64,000 bases of DNA from NCBI GenBank assembly GCA_963753345.1, contig CAVWBU010000016.1:197150-261149 (forward strand), given 5' to 3'. This document shows, in pieces, positions 1,596-60,028 of this stretch. The stretch is from an uncultured Fibrobacterota bacterium. GTDB taxonomy: Bacteria; Fibrobacterota; Chitinivibrionia; Chitinivibrionales; FEN-1185. The number at the start of each line of letters is the position of its first letter. The stretch's first letter is position 1. The notes beneath the pieces are model-generated. The model was not told the origin of the DNA. It saw only the letters and a program-made list of their open reading frames with translations, and did no database searches. Made by a program: the position numbers and the translations under genes.

Positions 1596-1747
1596 TGGGC
1601 GTTCCCCTCCCCCTCGTCAAGATTCGGGGTCGGGTCGGCCCTCCTTCCGGTCTCGGCCTTTGGCCTCGGGCCGCCTGCCACAAAGGCCCTGTGGGCCGTG
1701 GTCAGGCGGCACCGCGCTCCAGCGCGGCCTCCAGTCCTGCCTAACGC
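1596..1747 (+). repeat. Structured intergenic repeat, module A only (locus 1)
   Basis: tgggcgttcccc...ggtcggccctccttccggtctcggcctttggcctcgggccgcctg...caggcggcaccgcgctccagcgcggcctccagtcctgcctaacgc; close match to the copies at 42268 and 44163. Confidence 0.9.
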
Positions 1748-1861
1748 TTGGCAGAAGGGTATTTGCACATTTGCTCTGTTCGCTGCTGCACTAACCGAGC
1801 GACATTTCTCATTGTCAATCAACAATCAATCTCATCAGCAAATCCTTGACTGCGATTGCAA

Positions 1862-3481
1862 CTACTTTGAATTCCATGATGCCGACTGGGTTACTGTCTG
1901 GACCGGCGAATCGTCCTGATAGGAAACGACCACCGAATCCCCGTCCTGCACGGATATGAACCCCGGCCGTGAAGTCCCTGTTGTAAATCCGACCGTGGCG
2001 ATGAAATTTCTGATCGTCCCGCCCGTCACCCGTAAGGTGTCCTTGATGCCGACAGGGTCTTTCCGGCTTGCGATACCGACCACTGCCGTGCTGTCGGCAA
2101 TATCGTCGTCGCTCATGTTGATCGTCATCGCGCTGCCGGTCCCGTGGTATGCGGCCGAATCGAGGAACATCGTGGCGAGCACCGGCAGCCAGATGCAGGC
2201 CGGGGGCGCTATGTCCTGGGCCGGGGTCATGTCGTGATAGACAATCGTGATCGTGTCGGCTGCCGAGCCCGTCACGGCAAGCACGCTGTCGTGCACCGAG
2301 GCCTTGAGGGAAAACCAGATGTGCCCCATAAAGTCTCCGGCAGACCCTTCGACGGCATGTAAAGCGACCTGGAACCCTGTCTTGTCCCTCACGCTGGCAA
2401 CGCGCACAAGAACGGTTGAATCAGTGACGTCGGAATCCCAGACATGGATCGAGAGCGGCCTCACAACACCAAGAATCGGCGATCCGCCCGGCTGCACGAT
2501 GCCCGCAACACCGGTCCACGTCGTTGAAACGGAATCGACCCGCGCCGGGGATGATTCCGTGTAGCAGGCCGACACGACATCGCCGTCCCCGACCCTTAAG
2601 AGCCGTTTCGCGGAATCGGAATGCGTTATGGAAAACCACACGCTGTCGGAAAAGGTGCCGGCGGCTCCCGTCACCTTCGCCAGCCCCACGGTTATTCCCG
2701 CCGCGTCAGTGCCGCTTCTAACCTTTACATAAGCGAACTGCCCCGCGAGGCTCGAGTCGACCACGGTGATTACCAGCGGTACGATGCAGCTCTGGTAGGA
2801 GCCATTGTCAAATGAGATGATTCCGGCATTTCCGGAGGAGGAGGCGAGCAGAAAGTCGTTTGCACCCACATACGAAGAAATCGGCTTGCGCGCGACGGTG
2901 TAACCGGTTGCCGTTACAATAATGGTGTCGATTGCAAGGGCTGCAGATTTCGATAAGGCGCCGGACAAACCGTTACCAGCAATTCTTGATAACCCGTACC
3001 CATGGTCGGTATTGCCATCAAGCATCTTGAAAACAAAATCGGCGCTGCCGATCCTGAGTTTCACAAAACATAAGAGTCCAGCCGAAGTCCTTTTCCCGAA
3101 TGGATTGAACCGATAGTTGCCGCATTCCAGTTTCCGTTCGACGGCGGGGGCGATGGTCCGGCCTAGAAGATCGCAGACGTCAATGCGCACCGGCTGGCCG
3201 GCAACGGAAATCCCGAAAAATACGCTTCCTCGTTTGGCTACCGGCCGCTCTGCAGGTGAAACTCCGCCGTGAACAAAAGGTCCCACGCCCGAGCCCTTAA
3301 GCGCGTATCCGCCCGATGAATCGGTCGTTGTTGACAAAGGCAGCCCTTTCAGGGCCACCACCGCGCCTGCGATCCCCCTCAGTGAGGCCGAATCCCTTAC
3401 TGTGCCCGTGAGGTTGACGGATTGGGGAAAGGCGAAGGACAAAGCGCCGGCAAGGAAAATGATAGCGATGCTATTCTTCAC
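1862..3481 (-). CDS. Secreted protein: carboxypeptidase-regulatory-like N-terminal domain plus three ~105-aa beta-rich repeats
   Basis: Likely GTG start at 3481 (VKNSIAIIFLAGALSFA signal peptide). VNLTGTVRDS..IAGAVV motif. Three repeats of I.V.DSD....V.V.S..D..G....L..V.G....F...VWFS...V.DGD.V...Y. Confidence 0.75.
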   Translation of the reverse strand: MKNSIAIIFLAGALSFAFPQSVNLTGTVRDSASLRGIAGAVVALKGLPLSTTTDSSGGYALKGSGVGPFVHGGVSPAERPVAKRGSVFFGISVAGQPVRIDVCDLLGRTIAPAVERKLECGNYRFNPFGKRTSAGLLCFVKLRIGSADFVFKMLDGNTDHGYGLSRIAGNGLSGALSKSAALAIDTIIVTATGYTVARKPISSYVGANDFLLASSSGNAGIISFDNGSYQSCIVPLVITVVDSSLAGQFAYVKVRSGTDAAGITVGLAKVTGAAGTFSDSVWFSITHSDSAKRLLRVGDGDVVSACYTESSPARVDSVSTTWTGVAGIVQPGGSPILGVVRPLSIHVWDSDVTDSTVLVRVASVRDKTGFQVALHAVEGSAGDFMGHIWFSLKASVHDSVLAVTGSAADTITIVYHDMTPAQDIAPPACIWLPVLATMFLDSAAYHGTGSAMTINMSDDDIADSTAVVGIASRKDPVGIKDTLRVTGGTIRNFIATVGFTTGTSRPGFISVQDGDSVVVSYQDDSPVQTVTQSASWNSK

Positions 3482-3555
3482 AGATGTTTTCCGGCAAAAG
3501 AAATCTGAACGATGATAAGGTATTTGATGATGAAATCCTCTTTCGCTTTTCCATT

Positions 3556-3592
3556 TGACCTCACCCCCGGCCCCTCTCCTATGGGAGAGGGG
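3556..3592 (+). repeat. REP-like palindrome, CCTCACCCCC-CCCTCTCC/GGAGAGGGG type
   Basis: tgacctcacccccggcccctctcctatgggagagggga; a second copy lies at 38741-38778. Confidence 0.75.
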
Positions 3593-3661
3593 AGCAGCAT
3601 CCTCGCATGCTCTCCGAATTTTGCGTGGGATGCAGATGTCTTTCTTATCCAACAACTTTCC

Positions 3662-3812
3662 GTGGGTGCCCCGCAAGCAGTGCATATTCTTGCAGCCAGC
3701 TTTTCATGGGGGTCACCCAGGAGGGGGTAGCGGAGGACCAGACGCGCATGTCAGGATTGCTGATTTGTAAATTGGCGCGGCCGGGCCGGAGCGAGGGGGA
3801 AACTTCCCCCAC
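3662..3812 (+). repeat. Structured intergenic repeat, module B only (locus 2)
   Basis: gtgggtgcccc...gggggtcacccaggagggggtagcggaggacc...gggccggagcgagggggaaacttcccccac. Confidence 0.9.
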
Positions 3813-3833
3813 TTAAAACATCTAAATTCTATA

Positions 3834-5819
3834 TTAGTAAATAAAATCCATAATAGCATGCGCCGGTATCGTTGGCTTGACAATCTGCGAGCCCTGTTTG
3901 ATCTTGAACGAAATGGCCGCCGCAGTGTTGTTGTAGGCAACGACCACGATCCTTCCGTTGGTGTTCAAAAACGCGGTCGCTTCGAGATACGGATTGGTAC
4001 TTATACAGTTCAGCCTGATCGCGCCCGGCCGCAGGTATCTGCTGAAATGCGCGAGGTAATAATATGAAGGGCAATAGTGCACCGAATCGTTGTTGAAATC
4101 GATATACACCGACGAAGCGCAGCCCGTGTTCGGGTCGTGGCGCGGCAGGCCGTTCTGGTCCAGCACCAGGTTCCATTCGACCCATCCTTCCGTCCAGTTG
4201 TTCAAATCGCCGATGATGTCGTGCGCATAGTTCTGGCCGGTCGACCAGTTGCCCATGGGCAGGCCCTCTGCCTCTTCGGTTGCCAGCAGGTGTTTGGACG
4301 GAAAGTTGTCGTGCGTGGTCGCGACGTTGTCGAACTGGTCGCCGGAATACCAATGAAACCCCGTGCCCCATGCATACTTTGCCGCCGCGGTGTCGCCGAG
4401 AATGGTGCTGGCCCACGTTGCGACATGGTCCTTATTGTGGTCGAAAATCATCACCTTCACGTTGACCCTGTTCTGGGCCAGCGCCGGCCCGAGATTGTTT
4501 TTAAGAAAATCCCGTTCCGAGGCCGCGGTGTAGATGCACGATTCCCACGTTTGGGTGGCTTCGGGCTCGTTTTGTATGGTAACGCCCCATACGGGAATGC
4601 CGGCGGCGCCCATGGCCTGAACATACTTGACAAAAAACAATGCCCAGGTGTTCGCGCAGGCCGCAAGCAGCGTTCCGCCGTCGAGCATGTTGTTGTTCGA
4701 TTTCATCCAGGCCGACGGCGACCAGGGGGAGGCGAATATCCTGATGTCGGCCCCCGGAAGCGCCATGGCCTGCTTGATCGTGGGGATCATCCACTGTGTT
4801 TCGTGCTGGATCGAAAAGTTGTCCAGATTGTAGTCGCCGGGAATGCTGTCGTAGGAATACTTGGCAATGCAGAAATCGCAGCTCTGGAGATTGGTGCGGC
4901 ATACCGTATAGCCGGAGCCGGTAAAGGGGCTAAAATAGGCGTTGAGAATCTGGCTCCTCTTCTGGGCCCCTATTTTGTAGAGATTGTAGGTGGCTGCCTC
5001 GGTGAACGCGCCGCCGAACCCGAGGATGGCCTGATACCTGTGCGTCGTGTCTACGGTTATGGTGGCGACCGCAGAGCCGTCGTCGGCTGCGAAGGTCAGT
5101 GGAGGCTTGGCGGACAGGAAGTCGGCGGCCTGCGCGGTCTGCACCACCTGGACCGAACCAGGAGCCACGATCCTCTGGAGTTTGATGTCGTAGGTCCCGA
5201 TGAGACCCGGTATCGCCAGACCGGCAACACCGTATCCCACCGAACCGGCAAGCAGCGTATCGGCATCGGCAGCTTTCTTCCCGGCGGCCCCGGAAAGGTT
5301 GGTTACGGGGATCCGGTCGGGCGGCGTGCCGGAAAACAAACGCGAATCGACCGACGTGGCCTTGACAATGGAGATGTTCCCGCCGACCTTGACACGGAGG
5401 AATATCACCTGCGCGCCGCGCAGGCCGGGGTCAAGGCTGATCCTGTATTCCCCTCTCGATAACGTTCTGTCCGCAAGAGTCTCGAGGCGCTTTCCGGAAA
5501 CCGTGAATGCCTCAATCCCGACCGGCGCCTGCTCATCGGTCACGCCGAAACAAAGCTTTCCATTCGCGATATAGGCGCTTGATCTTTCGATGCGCGTTTC
5601 CGATGCCGGCTCGGCAATAGGCGTGCCGCCTCCAAGCACGTAATGTCCGACCGAATCCGAGTATGCGGTCCCGCCGGTTGCCGCCAAGCCCACGACCGCG
5701 CCCTGGATCGGCAGGCCGGTGCCTGAATCAGTAATAGTGCCGGTGATGTTAACCTGGGACTGAGCAAGGAAGACGATTGCTGCGATGCAAATAAGTGAAG
5801 TTTCAATTTTCCTCATCAT
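3834..5819 (-). CDS. Glycoside hydrolase family 30 (glucosylceramidase/beta-1,6-glucanase-like), secreted
   Basis: GFGGAFTEA, ASPWSPSAWMKSN, QNEP (acid/base), FHWY, ATEE (nucleophile) and EWNLVLD motifs; signal peptide and an accessory N-terminal domain. Confidence 0.92.
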   Translation of the reverse strand: MMRKIETSLICIAAIVFLAQSQVNITGTITDSGTGLPIQGAVVGLAATGGTAYSDSVGHYVLGGGTPIAEPASETRIERSSAYIANGKLCFGVTDEQAPVGIEAFTVSGKRLETLADRTLSRGEYRISLDPGLRGAQVIFLRVKVGGNISIVKATSVDSRLFSGTPPDRIPVTNLSGAAGKKAADADTLLAGSVGYGVAGLAIPGLIGTYDIKLQRIVAPGSVQVVQTAQAADFLSAKPPLTFAADDGSAVATITVDTTHRYQAILGFGGAFTEAATYNLYKIGAQKRSQILNAYFSPFTGSGYTVCRTNLQSCDFCIAKYSYDSIPGDYNLDNFSIQHETQWMIPTIKQAMALPGADIRIFASPWSPSAWMKSNNNMLDGGTLLAACANTWALFFVKYVQAMGAAGIPVWGVTIQNEPEATQTWESCIYTAASERDFLKNNLGPALAQNRVNVKVMIFDHNKDHVATWASTILGDTAAAKYAWGTGFHWYSGDQFDNVATTHDNFPSKHLLATEEAEGLPMGNWSTGQNYAHDIIGDLNNWTEGWVEWNLVLDQNGLPRHDPNTGCASSVYIDFNNDSVHYCPSYYYLAHFSRYLRPGAIRLNCISTNPYLEATAFLNTNGRIVVVAYNNTAAAISFKIKQGSQIVKPTIPAHAIMDFIY

Positions 5820-7968: not shown

Positions 7969-8011
7969 AGAATGCAACAAAGACTTTACACCTCAACCAA
8001 GGAGGATGATT

Positions 8012-12735: not shown

Positions 12736-12777
12736 TTACCGGGCTCCTGTACATGCACCAAAATGAATTTATTTCAT

Positions 12778-13163
12778 GTGGGGGAGGTTTCCCCCTCGCT
12801 GCGGCTCGGTCACACCACTTTACAAGTTAGATTTTCGATCATGCATGACCGAGCCTCCGCTACCCCCTCTTGGGTGCACCCCAAGTGGAAGCGGTTGCAA
12901 GCATCAAACACCTGTGTGGGGCACCCACCAGCGACTGTGGCAATAAAAATCGGCCCGACAGATTACCCAACAAAACGTTAGTGAAAGAAATCAAAGCCGG
13001 CAATCATCCTCTGCCCGCGCGCCAGGCAGGACTGGAAAAATGGTCCCGCTTGAGGCGGGATGCCGCCCGGACCCGCCGCTACTGCGGCATAGGACCGTGG
13101 CGGCCCGAGGCCAAAGGCCGAGACCGGAAGGACGGCCGCCGCCGCAAAGCGGCGGGGCGCCCA
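12778..13163 (-). repeat. Structured intergenic repeat, complete A-linker-B (locus 3)
   Basis: Reverse complement: A from 13163 (tgggcgccccgccgc...cctgcctggcgc) to ~13017; B from 12928 to 12778 (...gagggggaaacctcccccac). Confidence 0.9.
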
Positions 13164-13915: not shown

Positions 13916-14084
13916 TGGGCGTTACCCCTTTTGGAGTGGCATTCTATCAATGCCACTCCAAAAGGGGTCGGCTCTCCCTCCGGGCTCAGCCTGGCGGCCT
14001 CGTTGCCGCCTGTCCCTAACGCCTTCGGCGAGGGATCAGGCGTCAATCCCGCTATGGCGGGACCGCTCCGGTCCTGCCTAACGC
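13916..14084 (+). repeat. Structured intergenic repeat, module A only, with expanded first hairpin (locus 4)
   Basis: tgggcgtt, then a perfect 20-bp hairpin at 13924-13968, then ...tcccgctatggcggga...cctgcctaacgc. Confidence 0.85.
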
Positions 14085-19379: not shown

Positions 19380-19767
19380 TGGGCGCCCCGCCGAAGACGG
19401 CGGCGGTTCTCCTTTCGGGCTCGGCTATTCGCCTCGTTGCCGGACCGCCCTAGTCGCCTGCGGCGAGGGTCGGCCGGCAATGCGCTCTGGCGCACCCTTC
19501 AGTCCAACCTGGCGCAGCGGCATCAGAACTCTATTCAGTCAACTGTCTTCCTTACGCCAGGCAGAGTCTTTAATAAGTCAAAAGCAACATTTTTCTATAT
19601 GAACTTCTCAACTACTCTCCGTGGGTGCCCCCACACAGGAGTCTGGTTCTGCAACTGCATCCACTTGGGGGTCACCCAGGAGGGGGTAGCGGAGGACCGG
19701 TCGCGCGCATTGGAATGCTTGTTTGTAAAGTAGCGCGACCGGGCCGCAGCGAGGGGGATACCTCCCT
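19380..19767 (+). repeat. Structured intergenic repeat, complete A-linker-B (locus 5)
   Basis: A 19380-19515, linker ctattcagtcaa..cttacgcca, B 19621-19767; fills the gap between two convergent genes. Confidence 0.9.
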
Positions 19768-19800
19768 CCTTGCGTGCTTTTCTTATACGTCAAATACTAC

Positions 19801-27694: not shown

Positions 27695-27784
27695 CCAGAC
27701 TTTCTTTTCACCAACTTTCACGCCAAACTTCTCAACGTTTCAACTCTTTGCCTTTTTAACGCATTTTCTTTTCAACTATTCTCC

Positions 27785-27933
27785 GTGGGTGCCCCCACAC
27801 CAATGCTTGGTTCTGCTACCGCTTCCACACGGGGGCTACCCGCGAGGGGGTAGCGGAAGACCGGCGCGCGGTTGACAATACACACAAATGTTACCCCGCG
27901 CGCCGGGCTGAAGCGAGGGGGATACTTCCCCCC
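27785..27933 (+). repeat. Structured intergenic repeat, module B only (locus 6)
   Basis: gtgggtgcccccacac...gggggctacccgcgagggggtagcggaagaccggcgcgc...gagggggatacttccccc, preceded by a tcaac-rich tract. Confidence 0.9.
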
Positions 27934-27954
27934 TTGCATGCTTCATCATCTTTC

Positions 27955-30900
27955 TTATTTTATTAACGTCATCTTCCTGTCAAACACCCCGAGCTGCCTT
28001 CCGGTCTTGGCAACCGCGGACATCGAAATAACGTACACGCCGGCGACGACGGGCCTGCCGTCGGAGGACCGCGCGTCCCAAAGAAGATCGGAAGTCCCGG
28101 TCATGAAGCCCGGCGTTACCATGGTCCGCCACACGATCCGGCCGCGCAGGTCGTAAATGACGAATTTCACCTTGTCAACACCGTCGTACGGCAGGCTGTA
28201 CCGTATGCGGACGAACGTGCGGAACGGGTTGGGATACGTTCCCACGAACCGCAGCACGCCCGGCCTTGCAATCATGCGCGCCTTTGCGAGATACGCGGGG
28301 GTCCCCGCGAACAGCCAGCGATATTCCTTTGCGGCGGCGTCGACCGTCACTGCGGCGCCGGCGGCGGCAATGTCTTCAATCGAGTCTCTTGACGGATCGT
28401 AAAGCTTCGCGTTCATGCCCTGCGGCAGCGCCGCAGCGTTGCCGACCCGGTACGACATCGTGAGCCTTGCGTCGGTCTCGTTGCCGAACACGAGGAGGAA
28501 GGACGCGCCCCCGTCGCTCACGGAATGCGCCATGGCGTTGCCGCGCACGCGGCGTGCCGCGGCATCGTACACGCCGACGTACGCCTTGACAAGCGAGGGA
28601 GCCATCGGATAGTAGGAAACCGTCCCGGTCTTTGCGGCATGGTAACCGCAGTACACCGACGTAAGCGGCGTGCCGTCGGCAAGCGTCGGAACGACCGTGA
28701 GGGCCCAGCCGGCCGACGCTATCGCCGGTTTCTTGGCAAGGCCGATTTTCGACATCGCCTGCGGAAGGGGCGGAATCACGAGAGCAATGGTGTCGGCGCA
28801 GGGATTGTACACGGTGAAACCGGCGTCCGCGGCCGCGGATAGAACGGTCGCGGCGTTGCTGAGGGAATCAATGCCCGCAATGAATTTCGCCTCGGTACGG
28901 TACCTTCCGGCAGGGTCCTTGCGCCAGGAGTAGAACTCGAGGGTGTCGGGCGGGGAAATTGCAGAGCCCGTCGCCGTGAATATGTCTCCCAGCGCGATGT
29001 CGAAGTTGAACGGCAGGTCGAAATCGGTCCAGTTGCCCGGCGGGAGTTTGAGCGAAAAGGGCTTCAAGAGCGACGCCGTGATGCCGCGGCCGAACGTAAT
29101 CTCCGCCATGGCTTTGGTCTTGAGCCAGATCAGGGTTCCGCGCGAAAGCGCGAACTGCGCAGCGCCGGTGTCCGAGTATTCGGTCCATTTGGATTCGCTC
29201 GCGGCATTGCCGGATGAAGGAATCCAGCGGAAGACTCTGAACGCCGTATTGTCGTATTTCCATGCGCCCTTCACGGCCAGGGGCCTCAGCACGCTCCGGA
29301 TGTCCTGCGTGTCAAGGACCGCGTTCGTGGCCAGGGGCGCCCATTGCTGCGCGGTGGTGTGCAGGGACCCGGCCGTGTCGAGGATCACCGATCGCGACAG
29401 CACCAGGGAATCCCGGTGCGAGCCGTCGAAGGCGTACAGGACCGCGCGGACGCCGTTGTCGCCGCTCACGTACTGTCCGGCGACCCTGACGATGACCGTG
29501 TCGAGCGTGTCCGACAGCGTGGCGAACTGGCCGGTGTCGCTTGTAAAGAGCGACAACCCGCCCTTCGCCGCGTAGAAGTGCCACGAAACGTTGGAAATAT
29601 GGTCGCGGATCACGATCGTGTCGCTGAAGCCCTGGCCCGCAGGCAGCGAGTCCCAGGCGCCCGGCTGCACGGTGAGGCGCGGATGCGTGGTGTCGACCAT
29701 TGCGACAAACGGGAAATTAAGCTGGTTGGTGAGTACATACACGTACCTGCCGACCGTATCAACGGCAAACGGATCGCCGTCGACCATCCAGGCGCCCGAC
29801 GCCGTGCGGTAGAAGATGCGCACGTCGCTCAGGGTGTATCCCGGCGGAATCGTGTCGACCTTGATTCCCACATAGAAAGGAAGGCCGACGTCGGCGTTCT
29901 TGAATTCGAACCCGACGCCCGCCTGCACGAACCCGGCAAGCGCGGCGGGGGCGAACGTGACGTAGTACAGCGTGTTGTGGGTCACCGACGAGTCGCCGGG
30001 CGTGTTGAGCAGCCGCACGTTGTTGTTGAAGGCGAACACCGTGTCGTTCTGCTTTGTAAAGTAAACCACGTTTTGCCAGGTAAAGGCCGGCACGTGCACG
30101 CTGTCGTACGCCAGGGCAGTCGGCCGCGTCCACGCCCCGTCCGACCGTCTCAGCCACAGACTTACGTAGTAGGTGTGGTCGAAGATGATGTTGCCGCCTA
30201 CGTTCACGTATGCGCAGGCGTTCGCGGACGCGACATCGACCACCTGCTGCTGCCCGGTGTTCACCGTGGGCAGCGAATCCGCCGAGTACAGGATGCCGAT
30301 TTGCAGGCTGTCGGCCTGCGCCGGGTTCACGCTCCAGCACACCTTGATCTCGCTGACCGAGGTGTCGAACGTGAGGCTCGTCACCTGCGCGCTGTTGGAC
30401 GGCAGCGTGTCGCCCGCCTTGAGCGTGGAATCGGTCGCGCTCGCCGAGTCCGTAATCAGCGACCACAATCCTCCCTTGTAAACCTGGGCTCCGAAGTAGT
30501 ACCGCGTCTTTTCGTTGAACTTGTTCCCGATGATCACCGTGTCCGAGACCGCGGGAACAAGGGAGTCGAGATTGAGCGACGTGACGTCGGCGACGAGCGG
30601 AACCGCAGCGCCGCTGCGGTACCAGATCATGATGCGCTCGATGCCGGTCTGCGCCACGTTGTTCCACGTGAGCCGGATCCTGGTCGACGACAGCGCGTGC
30701 GCCGCGAGATGGATCGGGTTGTGCGGCCGCAGCTTTCCCACAAGGAACGACGTGGACAGCGCCGGGCTGTACCGTGCGTTCCTGCCGTGGAGTTCCACGG
30801 CGGCATACATGGTTTTCTGTTCGTTGTTGAACTGCGTGTTGACAATGGAAATTGCATACCGGGTCCCCGCCTTCGCCACGTCGGACGCGGAGTACCACTT

Positions 30901-33900
30901 CGTAACGGACTGGTCCTTAAAGTTCACCGTGTCGGTCGCAAGGCTGTACCAGACGCCCACCGAGTCGACCCGCGACGTGTCGATGCTGTTGGCGTTGTCG
31001 AGATAGATGCGCGCAGTGTCGTCGGGGAGGTACACGCCCGAGATGAGGAGTGGGTTGACAATGGGCATTGTGTCGCGCATGAGGACCTTGGCGCCGTTGC
31101 CGCTGTCGAAGGGCGTGATCTTCTTGTCGGTCCAGAGAATGCCCGTCATGAGGCCGTAGACGCTGTCGCTGCCGGTGAGGCCGGGCACGGCCACGGTGTC
31201 GGCGAACGAGGCCCCGGCGGCGCGCAGCGCGGCCGCCGCATAATACTTGATGAAAGCCGACTGCGAAGGCGTCTGCGGCCATGCCGACACCGCGTACCAG
31301 AGGCCTATGGAATCCGCGGACACGGATGCCGACGGCGGCGTTATCGCGTTGTATCCGGTGAGCCTGATGCGTATCTTCTGCGGCGAAACGTACGACCCGG
31401 TCATCTGGATGGGATTGGCGCCCGGGTTGTAGGCAAAGATCTGCGACGACGCGGTATCGGCGCCGCCGGGCCCGGTCACGGCAAGACGCACCGTGTAGGT
31501 GCCTGCCTGGGTGAAGGAATGCGTCGGGTTCTTCGAGGTCGAATCGGCCGTGCCGTCGCCGAATTGCCAGATCCTGCTTGTAAAGTTCCCTGTTGACGAA
31601 TCGTAGAACGAAACCGCGAGGGGCACCTGGCCCGAGGCCGGAACTGCGGAAAAGGCCGCGTGCACTTTTCCGTAGACAATCACCAGGGCCACGGCGCTCG
31701 TCACCGGCTGGCCGCAGGCGGCGCTCACCACGCAGTGATAATGCGCGCCGCTGTCGGCCGTCTGCGCCACAAACGCATAGGAGGCGGCTGTCCCGGCCGC
31801 TATCGCGGTAAACACGGTGTCGGTTGCCCCCTTCCTCTCCCACCGGTACGAAAGCGACGTTCCGGTCGCGGTGACGCCGAACGTAACGACCGTGCCCGAA
31901 GCAACGGTGTCGTTGGCCACGATCCACGCCGTGATCGCCGGGGGGTCGCACACCGTGAGCGTGACCGCCGGGGAAATGATGGAGCCGCACTTGCTGGTGA
32001 TGGAGCAGTGGAACTGGAGCCCGTTGTCCGATGCTTTGGCGGTCCTGACGTACGCGGCGGAGGTCGCTCCGGAGTCGTTGGTCCACACGTGGCCGTCGGC
32101 GCTCTGCTGCCACTGATATCCTATGTTTGTCCCGGCGACGACGACCCTGAAGGTGGCGGTTCCGCCCGTCACCACACTGGTGTCCTTAGACTGGCTGGCA
32201 ATTGACGGAGGAGAACACACCGTCAGGGTCGCCGCGGTTGAGGAATCCTTCCCGCACCCGTTCTGGATGGCGCACCGGAACCTGGCATTGTTGTCCGCTG
32301 CGGTCGCAACGAGCTGGTAGGTCGCCGTGGCCGCCCCGGTCCCGCCCGTCACGTTCGCCCAGGTGACGCCGTCCGCGCTTCTCTGCCACTGGTACACCAG
32401 CAGATTTCCCGCGGTGGAGATGCCGAACGTCGCCGTGTCCCCGATGTTTTTGTCCTGGTTGCCCGGCTGCGACACCACCTGCGGCGGCGTGCACACGGCA
32501 AGCGCCGCGCTGTTCGAATTTGCAGGAACGCCGCAGCCGTTGGAAACCGTGCACCGGAAAAGCCAGCCGTCCTGGTTCGACGCGGTTGTAAAGGTGTACG
32601 CGGCGGTTGTCCCGCCCGGGGTCACGTTGGTCCACGTGCCGCCGGCGTTTGAGCTCGACTGCCACTGGAACGACGGCGCCGGGTTTCCGCTCCCGACAAC
32701 CGAAAATGTCGCATTCTGGCCGGCCACGGCATTCTGGTTGACGGGTTGCGTGGCTATTGAAGCTGCAGTGCAAACGCCGATTGAAACAATGGTCGAATAA
32801 AGCTGGCCGCAAGGATTTGTGATATTGCATCTGAACTGGGCCGTGGAGTCTCCGGTGGCAACCGTAAAACTGTAGGAAGCAGTGGTTGCACCTGTCCCGG
32901 CAGTCACATTGGTCCACGTCGCCGCGCCGTCATCGCTTCTCTGCCACTGGTACGAAGGGGAGGTCACCTCTGCGGCAAGCGCCAGGCTGAACGACGCCGT
33001 CTCTCCAACCTGCTTGCCCGGCTGCGACACCGGCTGCTGGGTTATGGCAGGCGGCGTGCATACCGAAAGCGTTGCCGCCGTCGAAGTGGCGTTGAAGCAG
33101 GCAGTGGAAACGACGCACCGGTATTCCCACCCGTTCTGGCTTGTCGCTGTTGCAAAGGTCAAGACCGGAGTGATCGCACCGGCCACGTTGTTCCAGGTGC
33201 CGCCGCCGTCAATGCTGTTCTGCCACTGGTACGAAAGCGACGGCGTGCCGGTGGCTGCAACAGTGAACGTCGCCGTGTGACCGGCCGTGTCGCTTATGTT
33301 AACAGGATTCGCCGTGATCACGGGCTGGGAACAGACCGTGAGCGTCGCGGAAGCGGAGACCGCGGCGCTGCCGCACCCGTTGGACGCGCTGGCGCGGTAG
33401 AGGTATCCGTTCTGGGTCGCTGCCGTGGAAAAAACATAGGTTGCGGCTGTGGCGCCCGGCACGTTGTTCCATGTCGTCCCGTTGTCCGTGCTGTTCTGCC
33501 ATTGGTAATTGATAGTTCCGCTGCCGCTCGCCGCAGCCGTGAATGTCGCGTTGGAACCGCTGTTGACATTCTGGTTCGCCGGGTTCGCGGTGATCGCAGG
33601 CGGCGTGCAGACGCTGAGCGTGGCCGGAGTCGAGTACGCGATGGTCCCGCAACCCGGTACCGTTGCGCCGCAATGGTATTTATACCCGTTCTGGCCTATT
33701 CGCGGCAGTAAAGCTATACGCTTGGCGAGCCCGCGCCGCCGATGTCGTTGAACGTGTTCCCGCCGTCGGTGCTCACCTGCCATTGATAATAGAGACCCGT
33801 TCCGCCGCTCGCCGCAGCGGTGAACGTGGCTGTCTGGCCGGAAATCACGCTCTGGTCCGAAGGATTCGTGGTGATCGAGGCGGCAACGCAGACGGTGAGA

Positions 33901-36900
33901 GATGCGGCATTGGATGTTGCGCTTCCGCCCACGCACGCATTGGTGACGACACAGTGGAATTTTGCGCCGTTGTCGCTTCCCGCGGTTGTAAAGGAGTACG
34001 ACAAGGTGTTCGCCCCGTTCCCGATTGTCACGTTGTTCCAGGTGTTTCCGCCGTCTATGCTTTTTTGCCATTGATAAGCGGGACTCGTCACGTTTCCGGG
34101 GATCGTAATCGAATACGTTGCCACCGCGCCCGCGATGCCCGACCAGTCGGACGGCTGCGTGGCAATGGACGGCGGCGTGCAAACGGTGAGCGTGACTGCG
34201 TTGGAAACCGCGGGAGTGGCGCAGCCGTTTGCGACCAGGCACTTGTACTGGTTGTTGTTGTCCGTCGACGCCGTCGTGAAACTGTAGGTGGCCGAGGCTC
34301 CGCCGGACGGCACGTCGCCCCAGGTCACGCCGTTGTTGGGGCTGTACTCCCATTCATACGTGAACGCTCCGCTCCCGATGGCGGCCACGCTGAAGGAGGC
34401 GACTTGACCGGCGGTAACGCTCTGGTTGGAAGGCTGCGTGCTTATTGCCGTGGGCGTGCAGACAGCGAGTATCGCGGCATTTGTATAGATAAGATTGCAC
34501 GTGTTGAACACCTCGCACATGAACTGCGCGCCGCTGTCGCTCTGCGCGGTCGTAAATGAATACGTCGAATTTGTCTGCCCGGTAAGATTGTAGAAGGTGT
34601 AACCTCCGTCGTCGCTGCGCTGCCATTGCAGCGAAATGTTGGGCCCTGCCGCGGATATTGTAAAGGAAGCAGTTTGCCCTGCCAGCACGCTCTCGTTTTG
34701 GGTGTTAACGGTCACGGACGGCGGAGTGCAGACGTTGCAGACGGCAGCAGACGAGGTGGCATTGCCGCAGGTGCCGGTTACCTGGCAGCGGCAAAAAACG
34801 ATCGCGAATCGACCATTAGGTCGGTTGTAAAGGTATAGAGTCGGGGTAGTTCGCCGGTACCGTAATGCGAAATGGCTCCACGGCTTTCCGGTCCCGGGAG
34901 CTATACTGCCATTGATACGTGAGACCGGTGCCCGTCGCAGTCACGCTGAACGTGGCGTTCATCCCAGAAGGCACGGTATCGGTCTGGGGCTGCACCGATA
35001 TCGAAGGCGCCACGCAGGCCGGAGAAACGGAAAGTGTGGCATAGTTGGACGCAACAGTGCCGCAGGCATTGGTCACGTTGCACTTGAACCATGAACCGTT
35101 GTCCCCGATCACCGTTGCGAAGGTGTATGTTGTCGCCGTGCTCGCTCCCGCCGCGTTGTACCATGAGGTGCCGCTGTTGTCGCTGCGCAGCCATTGGTAT
35201 GAAGTGGCGCCTGTTGCGGTAACGCTGAAGGTCACGTTGTTCCCGGCACTCGTGGCCTGATTCGTGGGCTGGACAGTGATGGTGGCCGTCGGGCACAAGA
35301 CCGTGAGTGTCGCCACATTCGATGTTATGGTGCCGCATGCACCGGTCACAACACATTGAAACTGGGCGCCGTTATCCGCAGGATATGCAGTGGTAAAGCT
35401 GTATGTTGCCCCAGTTGCGCCGCCGATGTTTGTCCAGGTTCCGGTGTTCCGCTGCCATTGATATGTGAGACTGGAGCCGGTGGCTCCGACGGTGAAGGTG
35501 GCGTTCTGGCCCGCGTTGACACTTGTGTTGGAAGGCTGAGTGCCTATCGCGGGTGCAGTGCAGGTGACGGTGAGCGTAGCCGCGTTCGACGTTGCGTTTC
35601 CAAAGGAGTTGCTCACATAGCAGCGGAATTGTGCGCTGTTGTCCGCAAGAACCGTTGTGAAACTGTAGTTCGCGGTGGTGCCGCCTGATCCGCCCGAGAC
35701 ACTGTTCCATGTGGTGCCGCCGTTATTGCTGCGCTGCCATTGATAAGAGAGACCGCCGCCGGAGGCGACGACTGAGAAGGACGCAAGACTGCCCACACTG
35801 ACGGATTGGGACGAGGGTTGTGTGGTTATTGTGGGGATAGTGGTTGCTATCGGGGTAAAAGCAATCCATGTAGGGTTGGTTTGCTGGGACTGGTAGCAAA
35901 GATTCATCCAATCAGAAGAGCGGACAACGTTTGAAATTTCAACCTCATTGACTTGCCCTTGAAAGAACTGACCCCAGTTTGCATAATATTTTGATCCGAT
36001 CTGGTTGTAGTAATAGGTAGCTGCACCGAGAGGCGCATTATTTGTTGTTATTGCTCGAGAAACCCCATTTACATAAATAGCGGCAACTCCTGCGGTGGTC
36101 TTTGTGACACCTACATGCATCCAAGATGTGGATGGATTGGGGAAACTACCGTCAGTAGTCCAATCGTCATGGAGAGCATCTGAATTAGCACCTCTGCTCA
36201 AATTCAAATTACTGGTAGCATTGTATCGGTTGAAATCTATATACGAGCCACCAGTAGCCGAGCACATACTAATAATATTATCCTGATTACTGGTTCCGCT
36301 GGACCATACCCATGCGGAATACGTGATGTTTGGGGCAGTGGCAAAATTAATCCCATTGCCAAGATTTTTGGTTGCTTTTGTACCCGTGGTATAAAAATTA
36401 TTGTTAGTGGTTGCAATTGGAGTTCCCGTAGTATACCCGGTACCACCGGAAACTATGGAAATGGCTCCAACTCCTATTGCATTATTTCCACCGTTCGTTG
36501 TATTTCCGGCTGTCACTTTCACCGTTGCATTACCTCCGCCTCCAGAAATTGTCAAGGTATCACCAACGAAATATCCAGTACCTGCAGCCACAATAGTTGC
36601 TCCAGTCACAACACCTCCAGCAGCCGTAATATTCAAGGTGCACCCGGTTCCTTCACCGGAACAAGTATTAAAAGAGACGCCGGTAACAGCACCTCCGCCG
36701 CCCACAGAAGTAACATTGACAATTCCTCCATCTCCCCCGGACACGAGCAGTCGGTCACCTACGACATAGCCGCTTCCACCGGCTATTGGTGTAGTACTGA
36801 CTCCAGTTATAGACCCTCCCGCATTGACGGCGGTAACGTTTACCGTGCATCCGGTTCCAGAGGCACTTCCAAATATCGCAATGTATTTGCCAAGCAACCC

Positions 36901-37485
36901 GTTGCCAAGATTTTGTCCATAGGCAATTTGTCCAGAAACCTGATCGCCGCTGACCATATTATTTCCAGTGCCTGGATACACTCCAGTCGCATCAGCGTAC
37001 CCGGCAAAATTAGTGTTACCCTGCTCATTAAGGTGCCATACGCCCAAAAATCCGTTCGAACTGTTGAATACGTTGGCCCCGTTCGATTGGCTCGTCGCCC
37101 CCGTATTCCCCCAGTACATCTTGAACTGCGTCTGTCCGCCATTCGTAGTCCCGACCACATTGTCAATCTTCACCCATATCTCCGCGACCTGGTTCGCGTT
37201 GTCCCAGCGCTCTATCTGATACGGCTGCGGGGTCGTTCCGTCCATCTTGGAAAAACGGATGTCCGAACCGTCCGAATTGGCCTGGCTGAATATGCTGGGG
37301 GAGAAAGTGCTGCTTGTCAACCGTATGAGTACCGGGAAGTTCGCCTGGTCGGTGGCGACGCCGGTCGGCGCCGTAAGGGTCACGATATACGCGTGCAGCC
37401 ACGGCGAAAAATCATCGGCCCGCGCCCAACCGCTCACAAGCAGCACTGCTGCTGCCGCGGCAATCAATCTTCTGTCAATCTTCAT
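27955..37485 (-). CDS. Giant adhesin-like protein (~3,170 aa if rejoined): DUF2341-like + LamG + ~15 Ig-like repeats + PKD + FN3-like + FlgD/T9SS-CTD-like tail; frameshifted near 34800-34900 and 33690-33725
   Basis: Signal peptide; NFPVLIRL, DGSDIRF, YQIERWD...AEIWVK; GVWHLNE; FQGQVNEVEISNVVRSSDW; repeated I..QP....V..G..ATF.V.A.G....YQWQ...W; F.DSSTG...W.FGDG (PKD); YPNPF...IYDLRGR..W..WD.R...G..V.AGVY. ORF pieces 34816-37518, 33714-34715 and 27955-~33690. Confidence 0.85.
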
Positions 37486-37782
37486 TTCCCCCCACCTCAT
37501 GCTTTGCTCAGCCGACACTCTGCCACGGCCTGCTTGCGTTTTCGCAACCTTCTGGCGCGCTCATCAGCACCCATTCCAGCGCAAAAAGTCACCGTTAGAC
37601 ACGTTGCCCCGCTTCAATCCATATTATACAGCAGATCTCGAAAAAATACCGCACTTAATCGCATAAACCGAAAAATACAATATGCCTTTTTCAACCGCAT
37701 AACTAACAACCACCACACATCCTATGGTATGCGGTTGCCAAATTGACCACAATTGTTCAAATGTAAATATTAGCAATAAATC

Positions 37783-38261
37783 TGGGCGTTCCCCCATCTC
37801 AATTGTAGATTGTAGAATGAAGATTTGAAATGCGAAATGCGAAGACCAACCAGAATCTCTTTTCAATCTAAAATCATCAATCTAAAATCTACAATTAAGA
37901 GTCCGGGCGGCATCCCGCTGAGGCAACAGAATTCTATTCAGTCAATCACTTCTTCTTGCGCCAATTGGCATTCGAAACGCAGTATTCAGCGCATTCTCTC
38001 TATATTTCAAACTTTCCAACGTTTCAACTTTTCAACGTTTCAACGCTTTTTCTTCTAAGCTCCTCAACTTTTCAACTACTCTCCATGGGTGCCCCCACAG
38101 CGGAGTACGGTTTAGCCACTATCTTTTCTCGGGGTGCACCCAGGAGGGGGAGCGCCCGCCCAACAGGAAGGGCGGATAGCGCCGGAGGACCGGACGCGCA
38201 TGTTCAAATTACTGGTTTGTAAAGCGGCGCGGCCGGGCCGCAGCGAGGGGGAGCCTTCCCC
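37783..38261 (+). repeat. Structured intergenic repeat, disrupted A + linker + B (locus 7)
   Basis: A start tgggcgttcccc; an AT-rich inverted heptamer tract replaces the A core; remnant tccgggcggcatcccgct; linker ctattcagtcaa..cttgcgcca; B 38085-38261. Confidence 0.85.
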
Positions 38262-38298
38262 ACCCGGACGCTTTCTCTTGTTGGCAGGTTAATCTCAA

Positions 38299-38778: not shown

Positions 38779-38941
38779 GAAAAGAGACAAAGTGACAAAG
38801 GGCAAACGACATAATGGAAGGTGCAAAGCACCACTACCAAACCCTCAAGGAACGTAGGGACAAAGTAATTCTTTGTTTCCAACTTTTCAACGCTTCAACT
38901 TTTCAACGTTTCGACGCTTTTTCTTTTCAACTGCTCTCCTC

Positions 38942-39086
38942 GGGTGCCCCCACACAGGTGTTTGATTCTTGCAGCAGGCTCTTCTTGGGGTGCACCCAGG
39001 AGGGGGTAGCGAAAGACCGGCGCGCGATTGGCCTGAGTTACGAATTAGGGGCGCGCCGGGCTGAAGCGAGGGGGAACCTTCCCCCA
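38942..39086 (+). repeat. Structured intergenic repeat, module B only (locus 8)
   Basis: gggtgcccccacac...ggggtgcacccaggagggggtagcgaaagaccggcgcgc...gagggggaaccttccccca. Confidence 0.9.
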
Positions 39087-39109
39087 CCAATAATTAATTT
39101 GGGATTTCT

Positions 39110-42267: not shown

Positions 42268-42693
42268 TGGGCGTTCCCCTCGCCTTCGTCAAGTCTCAGG
42301 CTCGGGTCGGCCCTCCTTCCGGTCTCGGCCTTCGGCCTCGGGCCGCCTCGGCCCTAGGCCGCAGTAGCGGCGGGTCCGGGCGGCACCGCGCTCCAGCGCA
42401 GCCTCCAGTCCTGCCTAACGCGCGGCAGAAGAAATCTATTCTGTAAAGCTTTATCTTTGCGCCAGCCTGAATTCTCAAGGAGCAAAACAACGCTTTCTGC
42501 TTGAACTGCTCGACTCCTCAACTTATCAACCTTTCAACTATCTCTCGTGGGTGCCGCCACAGCAATGTATGGTCTTGCAGCAACTTTGTCAAGGCGGCCA
42601 CCCAGGAGGGGGTAGCGGAGGACCGGCGCGCGTTTGACAATATATTGAAATGCTTAGCGCGCACCGGGCCGCAGCGAGGGGGATACCTCCCCC
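42268..42693 (+). repeat. Structured intergenic repeat, complete A-linker-B (locus 9)
   Basis: A 42268-42421, linker ctattctgtaaa..tttgcgcca, B 42547-42693. Confidence 0.92.
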
Positions 42694-42712
42694 GCCATAA
42701 TTTTCATTTTTA

Positions 42713-43998
<1,286 letters not shown>

Positions 43999-44162
43999 AG
44001 ATCAAAGGTTCCTTTTTCTTCGGGGACCTACGTGCAAAGTATGAAGAGTGTTGACGAAACTTACTAAAAATAGTCTTTTGATGAGGAGGGCTGGAATGAA
44101 TAAGTAGCATGGCGATTCCAGATTCTGGTGGGGGCACCGCTTCGCGAATTACAGATAAAGCC

Positions 44163-44526
44163 GGGCGTTCCCCTCGCTGCGCTCGGGTCGGCCGTCCTTC
44201 CGGTCTCGGCCTTCGGCCTCGGGCTGCCTGCCACGAGGGCCCTGCGGGCCGTGGTCAGGCAGCACCGCGCTTCAGCGCGGCCTCCAGTCCTGCCTAACGC
44301 GCGGCAACCGAAGTCTATTTCGTAAACTACTATTTCTTGCGCCAGCCGGAGTCCCTGCGTGGAATTTTAACCTATCATCAAATCTCCGTGGGTGCCCCCA
44401 ACCGAAGCATGTTTCTCGCAAATAAACTGACTTGGGGGCCACCCAGGAGGGGGAGCGCCCGCCCAACGGGAAGGGCGGAAAGCGCCGGAGGACCGCAGGG
44501 CCGGAGCGAGGGGGAGCCTTCCCCCA
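44163..44526 (+). repeat. Structured intergenic repeat, complete A-linker-B (locus 10)
   Basis: A 44163-44300; B 44388-44526, with a cgccc..gggcg insert and a short gca-loop arm. Confidence 0.92.
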
Positions 44527-44586
44527 CATGAATACTTTTTCAGCTTTGTGTGACTTTCCATCTCCTTCCCGCCTAAATATTATTTT

Positions 44587-50346: not shown

Positions 50347-50732
50347 TGGGCGTTCCCCTCGCTCCACTCGGGTCGGTTTTATTTGAGACAAGATAGGAGT
50401 TGGGCGCCCCGCCGCTTCGCGGCGGCGGTCCTCCTTTCAGGCTCGGCCTTCGGCCTCGTTGCCGCCTGTCCCAACCGCCTTCGGCTAGGGATCAGGCGGC
50501 AATGCGCTCCAGCGCACCTTCCAGTCCGACCTGGCGCGCGGCAACGATAATTTATTCTGTCAATTAGTCTTTCTTGCGCCATCCCAGCATTCAACTTTCA
50601 ACTCGCAACTTTCAACTCTCTTTCTCGGTGCCCCCGCAGCAATGTGTGGTCTCGAATCTGCTTTATCAAGGGGGCTACCCAGGAGGGGGTGACGGAGGAC
50701 CGCAGGGCCGCAGGCAGGGGGATACTTCCCCC
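50347..50732 (+). repeat. Structured intergenic repeat: extra A 5' fragment plus complete A-linker-B (locus 11)
   Basis: Fragment tgggcgttcccctcgctccactcgggtcgg at 50347-50376; A 50401-50537; B 50627-50732; lies between convergent genes. Confidence 0.9.
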
Positions 50733-50743
50733 ACAAGAAGACT

Positions 50744-57354: not shown

Positions 57355-57446
57355 TGACAAATATGCAATCTACGGAACGTGCGTCCCGGGAAAGCGCACC
57401 GGCATTTCCGGCACGCGCCGCCCCTGCGAAGAAGGGAGATCCGGTT

Positions 57447-57776: not shown

Positions 57777-57830
57777 AAACGACTCCTCCCCGGGCCCGCC
57801 ATGTGCACCGGAAGGGCGACCAGCCCGCCG

Positions 57831-58133
57831 TCACCCCCGCTTTTGAAGCGCGTCCAGAACCGCGGCCCGCAGTTTCTGCCAGCCCGCCGGATCGTTCCTG
57901 TATCGATTGACAAAGGCTTTTGCCGTTGCCCCGTTTATTCCCGTAAGCGCGCACAGGCGGCGATAGCGCTGGGCCGCCTGCGTGCGCGAAACCGTCTTGT
58001 CGGTGGCAAGCAATTCGATGCCCGCAAAGTAGGAAACGAGATTCTGGTACGGCGGCGCTATATCGGCGGCACGAACGGCGCCGATCGCGCAGATCAGAAA
58101 TAGTGCGGCCAGCATCAGAAGGTTCTTTTTCAT
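57831..58133 (-). CDS. Small exported hypothetical protein
   Basis: MKK + hydrophobic signal peptide; co-directional with trxA. Confidence 0.6.
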   Translation of the reverse strand: MKKNLLMLAALFLICAIGAVRAADIAPPYQNLVSYFAGIELLATDKTVSRTQAAQRYRRLCALTGINGATAKAFVNRYRNDPAGWQKLRAAVLDALQKRG

Positions 58134-58208
58134 GCTGTATAAAAATGCTTGGTTCGGGACAAAGAGTCAAGATGATATAACCGTGTTTACAAGAGAAAGA
58201 TTTAAAAT

Positions 58209-58388
58209 TGGGCGTTCCCCCGCTTCGCGGGGTCGGTTCTCCTTCCGGTCTCGGGCGTTGCCCTCGGGCTGCCTGCCACGAGGGCCCTGCGGGCCGTGGC
58301 CAGGCAGCATCCCGCTATAGCGGGACCTCCAGTCGCTCCTAACGCGCGGCCGAAGAAATCTATTCAGTTAAGCTTGTCTGTGCGCCAA
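58209..58388 (+). repeat. Structured intergenic repeat, module A plus linker motif, no B (locus 12)
   Basis: tgggcgttccccgcttcgcgggg...cctaacgc (58345), then ctattcagttaa..tgtgcgcca. Confidence 0.9.
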
Positions 58389-58493
58389 CCTGATTTACAA
58401 AGGAAATTGTCCGGGCATTTTTTTTTGCTTCTCAACTCCTCAACCACTCAACTTTCTTAAATCTGTCAACCGTCAACTTTCAACTTTTAACTC

Positions 58494-59501
58494 TTAACTT
58501 CTTCCATACAGCTCCTCCAGCCCCCTCACCACCGCTTCGGGCCTCACCTTCCTCATGCATTTCCGCGACCCGGTGAGACACACGTTGCCGCCGTGCGCGT
58601 GACAGGGCCTGCAGAACCGGGCAGCCTCGAACACGCGGAAAGCAGGTTCGCCATAGGGAAAAAAACCGAAATGCGACGTCGTCGGGCCGTAGATGATGCC
58701 GGTCTTCACGCCGCAGGCCCTTGCAATATGCGAGAGTCCCGTGTCGTTGCCCAGGGCGACCGTACATTGCGAAACGAGACACGCCGTTTCGTACAGCGAC
58801 AGCTTTCCCGCGGAGGAAACACAGCGGTCGCCTACGGCGCTTTTCATCCTGTCGGCCGCGGCAATGTCCGAGGGCCCGCCGGCGATGAGCACGTCCCATC
58901 CCTTTGCGGCGAAATACCTGCCCACAAAGGTGTAAAACTTCGCGGGCCACTCCTTGTTCTTCCACGCGCTGAACGGAAACAGGGCGATGCGCGGCCGGAC
59001 CACCCCGCTTTCCGGGAGGATACCGAACGCGGTCCCGCATTTTTGTTTGTCAAGAATGAGGCGCGGCGCGGGAAATGCGCCCGGCGCGCCTTCGAACCCG
59101 CATGCCCGGGCGTACCGCGCGACCACGTTGTCTCCCTTGGGGTACAGACTGGCCCTAAAAAGCAGCAACACCGCGCGCTCAAAATGCCGCTTGCCCACGA
59201 CCGAAGCCTTTTCCAACGACACGAGGTCCTTCCGCAGAGAAAGGCTTCTGCGGCTGTTCTGCAGGTCGATGATCCTGCTCCACGCCGCGCCGGACAGCAC
59301 GGCCGCGGCTTCGCGCTCGCCGCCCTTGTCAACCGCAACCACCCGTGCCAGGCGCGGGTCGGCCGAGAAAAGTCCGGCGTATTTCCTGTCCGTTGCAAAC
59401 CAGAGGTTCGCCGTCGGAAACGAGGACTTCAGGTATTCGAAGACGCTCGCGGCAAGGACCACGTCGCCCATCGAGGAGAGACGGATGATGAGGATTTCCA
59501 T
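58494..59501 (-). CDS. Glycosyltransferase family 9 (LPS heptosyltransferase-like)
   Basis: ILIIRLSSMGDVVL, DLQ, KEWP, GKLSL, GNDTGLSHIA, YGPT. Confidence 0.92.
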   Translation of the reverse strand: MEILIIRLSSMGDVVLAASVFEYLKSSFPTANLWFATDRKYAGLFSADPRLARVVAVDKGGEREAAAVLSGAAWSRIIDLQNSRRSLSLRKDLVSLEKASVVGKRHFERAVLLLFRASLYPKGDNVVARYARACGFEGAPGAFPAPRLILDKQKCGTAFGILPESGVVRPRIALFPFSAWKNKEWPAKFYTFVGRYFAAKGWDVLIAGGPSDIAAADRMKSAVGDRCVSSAGKLSLYETACLVSQCTVALGNDTGLSHIARACGVKTGIIYGPTTSHFGFFPYGEPAFRVFEAARFCRPCHAHGGNVCLTGSRKCMRKVRPEAVVRGLEELYGRS

Positions 59502-59604
59502 GATTTTTTCGTTCCGAAAAATACCTTCCGATAGGAGCGCCGTGGGGGCAAAATATATTTTGATTTGAGTTATTTCTACCAAGCTGAAGAAAGGATTTTT
59601 TCAT

Positions 59605-60028
59605 GTGGGGGAAGTTTACCCCGTCGGGTACTTCCAAGGGTCGTCCCCCTTGCTCCGGCCCTGCGGTCCTCCGGTGCTTTCCGCCCTTCCCGTTGGGCGG
59701 GCGCTCCCCCTCCGGGGTGCACCCCTTGAAGGTGTAGTTGCAAGAATCAAACACCTGTGTGGGGGCACCCAAGGAGAGGTGTGGATTGATGATTGCGGAA
59801 TGTGGATTAAAAAAACCTTAGGTGGTTATTTTAAGATTCTGGTTGGCGCAAGAATATACCTTGACACAATAGATTTCCCCCTGCCGCGCGTTAGGTGGAC
59901 CGGAGTGGTCCCGCCGTAGCGGGATTGCCGGCCGACCCCGGCCGAAGGCCATCGGGGCGGTCCGGCAACGAGGCCGAACGGCCGAGCCCGTAGGGAGACC
60001 GGCCCGAGCGCAGCGAGGGAAACGCCCA
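59605..60028 (-). repeat. Structured intergenic repeat, complete A-linker-B (locus 13)
   Basis: Reverse complement: A 60028-59888, linker ctattgtgtcaa..cttgcgcca, B 59771-59605 with a ~23-nt insert in the terminal hairpin region. Confidence 0.9.

Follow-up and report, generated by a model that had tools for sequence, protein, structure and literature searches.

As a rule, the interspersed repeats of bacteria are simple hairpins, or they are short and have inverted repeats at their ends. Some of them, such as the BIME of enterobacteria and the RIME of rhizobia, are modular mosaics. Integron attC sites and the ends of IS200/IS605 elements are folded sites in single-stranded DNA (ssDNA), in which structure is kept over sequence and the enzyme reads the fold. 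Compensatory changes were also described for REPIN hairpins and interpreted by the authors as ssDNA structure (PMC3116915). Here we analysed a stretch of 64,000 nt from an uncultured Fibrobacterota bacterium, hereafter the window, which lies on contig C16 of a draft genome (G000) with 55 contigs, 4.5 Mb and 94% completeness. The window contains a GC-rich repeat, Module A, of 137-170 bases and 64-83% G+C (genome 56%). The repeat keeps a branched fold while the sequences of its helices change, and with a probability of roughly 0.55 we consider it a non-autonomous mosaic mobile repeat that needs its fold to spread.

Nine full copies of Module A, and no others, were detected in the window by nhmmer and a covariance model (Table 1). 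All nine had been listed in a first-pass annotation and are present where it had placed them, six with the ends gcgTT and AAcgc and three with gcgCC and GGcgc. A profile built from these copies gave 389 nhmmer matches in the 4.5 Mb assembly, 336 of them full-length and 323 distinct, and the full-length copies are dispersed over the 55 contigs at a density of about one per 13 kb. The annotation had also claimed that the two types of ends do not mix, and that many mismatched ends in the genome would speak against a fold. Genome-wide such mixing is rare: matched ends are present in 314 of the 336 full copies (TT/AA 223, CC/GG 91), fully crossed ends in just five (TT/GG four, CC/AA one), and the other 17 differ by one change or have an end that could not be read. 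For the four unambiguous end classes Fisher's test results in p = 9e-74, which is overstated, since the copies are related; shuffled and slid structures are better controls.

On one strand Module A is predicted to form a rod of the helices P1, P3, P3b and P3c, which closes a junction of the three hairpins P4, P5 and P6; P2 would branch off as a side arm near the base of the rod. The fold comprises ten helices including the junction, and within the module conservation is highest in the short unpaired motifs that surround this junction. Minimum-energy DNA folds of the copies at 19380 and 50401 are essentially the full branched model, and eight single-strand folds (four copies, both strands) reach z-scores of -1.75 to -4.5 that are similar on either strand, with -4.5 for the copy at 50401. 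The helix swaps described in the first-pass annotation could be read in the alignments of the window copies as well: gcCgcctg/caggcGgc in the copy at 1596 is gcTgcctg/caggcAgc in those at 44163 and 58209, the last hairpin has three forms, an inner stem reads ggc/gcc, ggtt/aacc or ggtc/gacc, and ggcc-ttc-ggcc is exchanged for gggc-gtt-gccc (58253).

In the variable helices, MAFFT and hmmalign alignments of all 336 copies did not have the quality that RNAalifold needs, and therefore a covariance model was used that had been built from the nine window copies and a hand-set structure. It was applied to 131 of the 336 copies, taken from the window and from twenty other 20-kb stretches picked for high copy density. 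In this alignment 87.5% of 4825 cells are paired, a value that none of 500 shuffles reached, compared to 73.6% after shuffling, and sliding the partners by 1-3 columns reduced pairing to 36-49%. Changes on both sides affect 29 of 38 pairs and 641 cells, versus 220 cells after shuffling. The two variable pairs of P1 are UA in 85-86 and CG in 40-43 cells, P3 is paired in 90.7% of its cells, and 16 of the 17 pairs of P5 are changed on both sides. Being fitted to the model, the alignment favours the structure; two checks are free of this bias. When 322 distinct copies are simply aligned to a profile, mutual information recovers the same stems as the model and an unmodelled pair between columns 35 and 123 (T:A 170, C:G 118). 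Moreover, P3b and P3c, whose columns are treated as unpaired by the model, are 96.4% and 92.6% paired with changes on both sides.

The best support for conservation of the fold as such comes from other genera, in which it persists with altered stems. Four genomes (G018, G012, G013 and G016) contain 33 matches, 31 of them distinct, whose different stems result in low scores of 26-59 bits. In these matches 89.9% of the cells are paired versus 63.3% after shuffling, and 32 of 38 pairs are changed on both sides; P4 is paired to 95.7%, with three of its four pairs covarying, and P6 to 97.9%. At least six compensated forms of P1 occur in the other genera, and the unpaired junction motifs are kept. 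The genome G018, which belongs to another family of the same order, shows the same fold with wholly different stem sequences and contributes further compensated P1 forms. The first-pass annotation had inferred a multibranch fold under purifying selection. Our results support a fold that is kept, but yield no evidence that the constraint acts on each copy to the benefit of the host or that the folded molecule is RNA. Wobble pairs hardly occur, and deviations of single copies from the common form are about as frequent in stems as in conserved loops. For these reasons the constraint probably acts on the lineages that produce copies, or stems partly from templated repair of one arm on the other.

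The P2 arm is hypervariable, with 236 distinct segments of 9-81 nt across the 336 copies. A long class consists of 32 distinct fold-backs of 40-51 nt, in which 580 of 607 stem positions (95.6%) are Watson-Crick pairs; between copies, the first 20 nt are just 45% alike (median, ungapped). A pattern search revealed no such hairpins outside copies of Module A. The possibility that P2 arms are guides or spacers was considered and dropped: 21 of 36 long P2 queries gave non-self BLAST matches, of which 120 lie inside other Module A copies, and 15 lie elsewhere, several of these at partial Module A copies.

Module A is followed in the full order by a linker and by two further modules, B and C, which are themselves hairpin-forming high-copy repeats with 274 and 189 matches in the genome. 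B stands behind A in 169 of the 336 copies, all three modules occur together 116 times, 166 copies of A are followed by neither of the other two, and B is ahead of C in 166 of 189 cases. B and C without A are found in the window at 3650-3830, 27726-27952, 38026-38282 and 38881-39105. One copy of B contains in its loop a promoter-like TTGACA-17-TACATT (42564-42592, minus strand), which points at Module A and the kinase gene. The copy at 58209 is followed by consecutive short TCAAC-like units (58346-58500), and similar units occur in A-B linkers.

The distribution of Module A among relatives is patchy. At least 125 scored matches each were found in G001, G002, G004 and G005, four of the five other species of the genus, and none in the 99% complete G003 of the same genus or in two other genera of the family. 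Within the order, matches at E <= 1e-5 were obtained for 15 of 81 genomes, across six families. When the phylum was sampled evenly, 12 of 151 genomes gave matches, all within the same order, and no match was obtained in the 84 genomes of families f10-f19. A scan of public genome contigs with a loose, gapped pattern of the module ends gave 120 single matches in unrelated GC-rich genomes, which are attributed to chance and of which nhmmer confirmed none. At syntenic sites the modules differ between genomes. Between the genes for AsnRS and APRT, G000 carries minus-strand C, B and A plus another C, the related genome G001 has B and C on the opposite strand, and G002 has a short gap with no module. 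Between the kinase and SerRS genes, A-B-C of G000 corresponds in G002 to a collapsed A with both ends plus B and C, in G004 and G005 to other GC-rich hairpin modules, and in G003 to 182 nt with no module. Compared to the syntenic region of G001, four of the seven A copies in one 20-kb stretch have the same place and orientation, and the other sites hold one collapsed A, one inverted A-B-C and, in one case, no module. Empty intergenic sites were observed once in G002 and once in G001. Among six syntenic pairs of full copies from G000 and G001 one is ~97% identical, one is ~96% identical except for an unrelated P2, and four differ in several helices, one of them even in the type of P1.

The collapsed form of Module A (~40-70 nt) retains P1, P2 and the 3' tail and has lost P4-P5; it was observed in the kinase-SerRS gap of G002 (contig C26) and on contig C139 of G001. 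GC-rich multi-hairpin modules unlike A, B or C replace or adjoin A in the kinase-SerRS gap of G004 and G005 and at L129:10880-11160, and the lineage seems to hold several families of such modules.

Most copies of Module A (307 of 336) lie outside rough gene calls. Gaps between convergent genes harbour 99 of 323 classifiable copies (31%) and make up 15% of all intergenic gaps. The orientation relative to GC skew is weakly biased (p ~0.01) and confounded with gene strand, and sequence conservation extends ~50 nt beyond the 3' end of the module. Contigs of four public DNA runs show repeat-to-repeat joints and depth spikes, and they have loose ends of other copies that start at 44163 and 44525-44532. 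The repeats break short-read assemblies of this lineage, and screens for RNA motifs could mistake them for RNA genes.

If Module A is a mobile repeat that depends on its fold, it would be the first module of a GC-rich, non-autonomous mosaic family between genes, and new copies would be made from a folded single-stranded intermediate. A trans-acting enzyme may recognise the shape together with the junction motifs, and only lineages that keep every helix paired would continue to be copied. This requirement, possibly combined with repair of one arm on the other, could result in the clean Watson-Crick covariation. After insertion, copies would drift, lose whole hairpins or get overwritten by other copies.

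The profile search for the putative enzyme, which covered Y1 transposase, TnpB and reverse transcriptase, gave negative results. Y1_Tnp (PF01797) has no match in G000 or in G001 (73% complete), each with at least 150 scored A copies, and TnpB (PF07282) and RVT_1 (PF00078) have none in G000; since draft bins often lose multi-copy insertion sequence (IS) elements, these absences are weak negative evidence. The presence of Y1, TnpB or reverse transcriptase genes among relatives does not track Module A. An all-against-all search of the gene calls revealed duplicate contigs, no IS elements and no multi-copy transposase. By nhmmer no A, B or C was found within ~1.5 kb of five Y1 loci of G002 and one of G004. 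The genome G002 also carries a minimal IS200-like element of ~550 nt with hairpins near each end, of which five compared copies are 99.6-100% identical. Its 4-base hairpin loops resemble the commonest loop of P6, which is a weak lead.

Several points weigh against a mobile repeat. No transposase is linked to Module A: the three domains are not found in a genome that is 94% complete, and none of the modules flanks the Y1 genes of G002 and G004. At the empty site of G001 no target-site duplication could be read, the flanks being too diverged, and neither a fresh insertion or excision nor a bridged empty site was seen in the four public DNA runs, whose contigs break at repeats. P1 has only five pairs, so long terminal inverted repeats are lacking. 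Finally, the likeness of two syntenic copies (96-97%) exceeds that of the genes of the species compared (85-90%), and the host could need these copies.

The first-pass annotation had itself named two clonal subfamilies as a possible source of all covariation. In that case each subfamily would have been copied from its own master, and the matched ends would reflect no constraint on pairing. The tight link of the P1 type to the type of the adjacent P2 (0.86-0.92 bit) agrees with such subfamilies. However, the P1 type is independent of the enclosed P5 and P6 variants (0.00-0.11 bit), the 131 copies form 60 helix-variant haplotypes, and other genera have the additional compensated P1 forms; two clonal subfamilies are already contradicted by these data and are excluded. 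Mutual information amounts to 0.70-0.98 bit within key pairs and to 0.0-0.2 bit between helices, with the exceptions of P1 with P2 and of neighbouring pairs within a helix (up to 0.37 bit). In a stricter test the partner column beats every nearby variable column in just 12 of 23 pairs, with a median of 0.72 bit for the partner and 0.63 bit for the best neighbour. Local blocks therefore exist, hairpins may be exchanged as units, and the independence of adjacent positions was dropped as a claim. The coupling of nearby columns is also in line with a purely mutational origin of the covariation, in which template switching or mismatch repair in a transient hairpin and ectopic gene conversion among ~340 copies act on a fold without any role. 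Template switching as a source of compensatory changes is described in PMC8794818. Stems that are nearly pure Watson-Crick with few one-sided changes, the well-paired long P2 fold-backs with their low likeness between copies, the many three-base loops of the hairpins and the overwritten syntenic copies all fit this origin. It accounts less well for P1 and P3, which pair across 110-130 nt and enclose all other helices; P3, nested just inside P1, shares 0.16 bit with P1, yet 0.98 bit between its own two sides. The persistence of the branched architecture and of the unpaired motifs in another family with different stems is not expected from mutational bias alone, and we regard a purely mutational origin as improbable.

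Slightly more weight, albeit still that of an unlikely explanation, is given to a structured RNA that serves the host, is cotranscribed with neighbouring genes as a 3'-end protector, attenuator or insulator and keeps its helices by selection on the RNA fold. Roles of this kind have been reported for some REP/BIME and BOX elements. Behind a sense upstream gene, Module A begins at a median of 27-30 nt past the gene end, and the A-run at its 5' flank is, on the other strand, a T-run after the fold. The two highly similar syntenic copies are more conserved than their own flanks, conservation of the junction motifs extends over families of the order, and P3c has a few plus-strand G.U pairs (6 and 7 cells). 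Effects of BOX and BIME on expression are stated in PMC3049150. On the other hand, a clear orientation rule is missing, as co-directional gaps contain 100 antisense and 70 sense copies, a weak bias. Wobble pairs are favoured on neither strand, with 119 G.T versus 106 A.C over all pairs of the 131 copies, 15 versus 27 in the 22 best-aligned pairs, and 8 versus 8 in the long P2 stems. A terminator reading was dropped, because no terminator-like site was called at any module and the scan total of 19 sites is close to the 18.7 expected. In addition, G003 lacks any copy and four of the six syntenic copies are replaced, not conserved, which also speaks against a host function. Described RNA families, be it a known ribozyme, a riboswitch or a transposon-associated guide or bridge RNA, are hardly credible: Rfam 15 gave no match at gathering scores in the window, a permissive search gave three chance-level matches to eukaryotic families (E-values 2-9), and PF07282 and PF00078, whose genes would accompany a TnpB/IscB guide RNA or a retroelement RNA, gave no match in G000. 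A more far-reaching explanation, about as improbable as the purely mutational one, would be a new class of structured mobile element. Here the junction and its unpaired motifs would be a recognition or catalytic core, on which a single-strand enzyme not yet described would act, or the element would be an RNA that processes itself. A mechanism of its own would diversify P2 and restore its pairing. The same low weight covers a host RNA with more than 300 copies per genome.

Table 1. Copies of Module A in the window, with the modules that follow them, and helices of the copy at 58209
Feature	Position	Strand	Remarks
Module A copy	1596..1747	+	gcgTT...AAcgc ends; no B-C behind; cmsearch 138.3 bits, model 1-137
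Module A copy	13019..13163	-	gcgCC...GGcgc ends; 108.4 bits; inverted repeats I2, I3, I6, I7; then B (12849-12921) and C (12766-12825), same strand
Module A copy	13916..14084	+	gcgTT...AAcgc ends; 106.7 bits; long near-perfect P2 fold-back; syntenic counterpart in G001 (pairwise alignment)
Module A copy	19380..19515	+	gcgCC...GGcgc ends; inner stem ggtt/aacc; 111.5 bits; then B (19609-19704), C (19729-19773)
Module A copy	42268..42421	+	gcgTT...AAcgc ends; 109.7 bits; then linker, B (42535-42630), C (42654-42698)
Module A copy	44162..44300	+	gcgTT...AAcgc ends, from 44163; 125.2 bits; then B (44376-44471), C (44493-44537)
Module A copy	50401..50537	+	gcgCC...GGcgc ends; inner stem ggtc/gacc; 121.3 bits; then B (50612-50707), C (50693-50737)
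Module A copy	58209..58345	+	gcgTT...AAcgc ends; exactly model length; helix reference; 138.7 bits; short TCAAC-like units in place of B-C downstream
Module A copy	59888..60028	-	gcgTT...AAcgc ends; 87.6 bits; inverted repeats I1, I4, I5, I10; then B (59644-59785), same strand
P1 5' arm	58212..58216	+	pairs with 58341-58345; closes the module; 98.9% of cells paired
P1 3' arm	58341..58345	+	other genera: 3 of 5 pairs covary, up to four pair types
P2 hypervariable side arm	58218..58232	+	short form in this copy
P3, P3b, P3c 5' arms	58235..58248	+	rod between P1 and the junction
P3c, P3b, P3 3' arms	58326..58339	+	mutual information and pairing counts
P4 hairpin, gggc-gtt-gccc	58253..58263	+	90.1% paired
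P5 long irregular hairpin	58268..58308	+	three stacked helices; 79.0%, 84.4% and 86.5% paired
P6 last hairpin	58310..58325	+	85.1% paired, all 6 pairs covarying

Apart from the repeats, the window is ordinary chromosome with genes for tRNA ligases, a TRAP transporter, a two-component pair and an apolipoprotein N-acyltransferase. Two very long open reading frames (ORFs) of 2132 and 900 aa are located on the minus strand at 27955-37518, with tandem units of ~276-282 nt. The seryl-tRNA ligase ORF at 42901-43998 (minus strand) comprises only 365 aa and matches the class II core in part. At 42959/42963 and 43050/43053, single-base gaps distinguish contigs of the public runs from the window, and a local frame error of the assembly is probable. 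Near-duplicate contigs in G000 (C4 and C5 versus C16:176000-181000; C10/C39/C43; C8/C50/C51) suggest a strain mixture in the bin.

How does Module A compare with the described systems? In contrast to attC sites its copies are dispersed and not arranged in cassette arrays, and the 5' GTT and the 3' AAC, present in the TT/AA type only, stand in the reverse order compared to the attC core sites. Like the MITEs Correia, RUP and Nezha, Module A is small, non-coding, intergenic, high-copy and patchy (PMC3184786; PMC3049150). MITEs are described there as AT-rich, with terminal inverted repeats and target-site duplications, whereas Module A has its high G+C content and a terminal pairing of 5 bp. Terminal inverted repeats of at least a dozen bases shared with a resident IS were not found in this assembly, in which IS elements may be missing. 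With REP/REPIN sequences, as described in PMC3116915, Module A shares the extragenic position, the GC-richness, hundreds of copies, persistence in a lineage and compensatory stem changes. However, two inverted REPs of ~20-40 nt form the single long hairpin of a REPIN, while Module A has a rod, a three-hairpin junction and a side arm, and in contrast to REP-RAYT systems the drafts G000 and G001 have no Y1 gene and the Y1 genes of G002 and G004 have no flanking modules. BOX elements (boxA-boxB-boxC) also consist of modules in a preferred order or alone, with variable length and strong predicted folding (PMC3049150). Their folds are given as stem-loops in the consulted text, which does not describe a conserved multi-helix junction or a hypervariable paired arm. 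The likeness to BOX, BIME and RIME concerns the mode of working and does not imply membership.

A keyword search of the literature, which cannot show absence from print, retrieved no published description of Module A. If the copying machinery reads the fold, hundreds of natural variants per genome would be available for studying the evolution of structure-dependent mobile DNA, and the system would allow selection to be separated from templated repair as a source of compensatory changes. The features that define REP-RAYT systems and classical MITEs were not found for Module A in these draft genomes; it is therefore not assigned to a named family and is best read as a new structured non-autonomous interspersed repeat. 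In its behaviour it is closest to REPINs and BOX elements. It differs from the usual hairpin repeats in that several helices meet at a junction, unpaired motifs are conserved and one arm is hypervariable yet perfectly paired, and it is kept in several families of an uncultured order.

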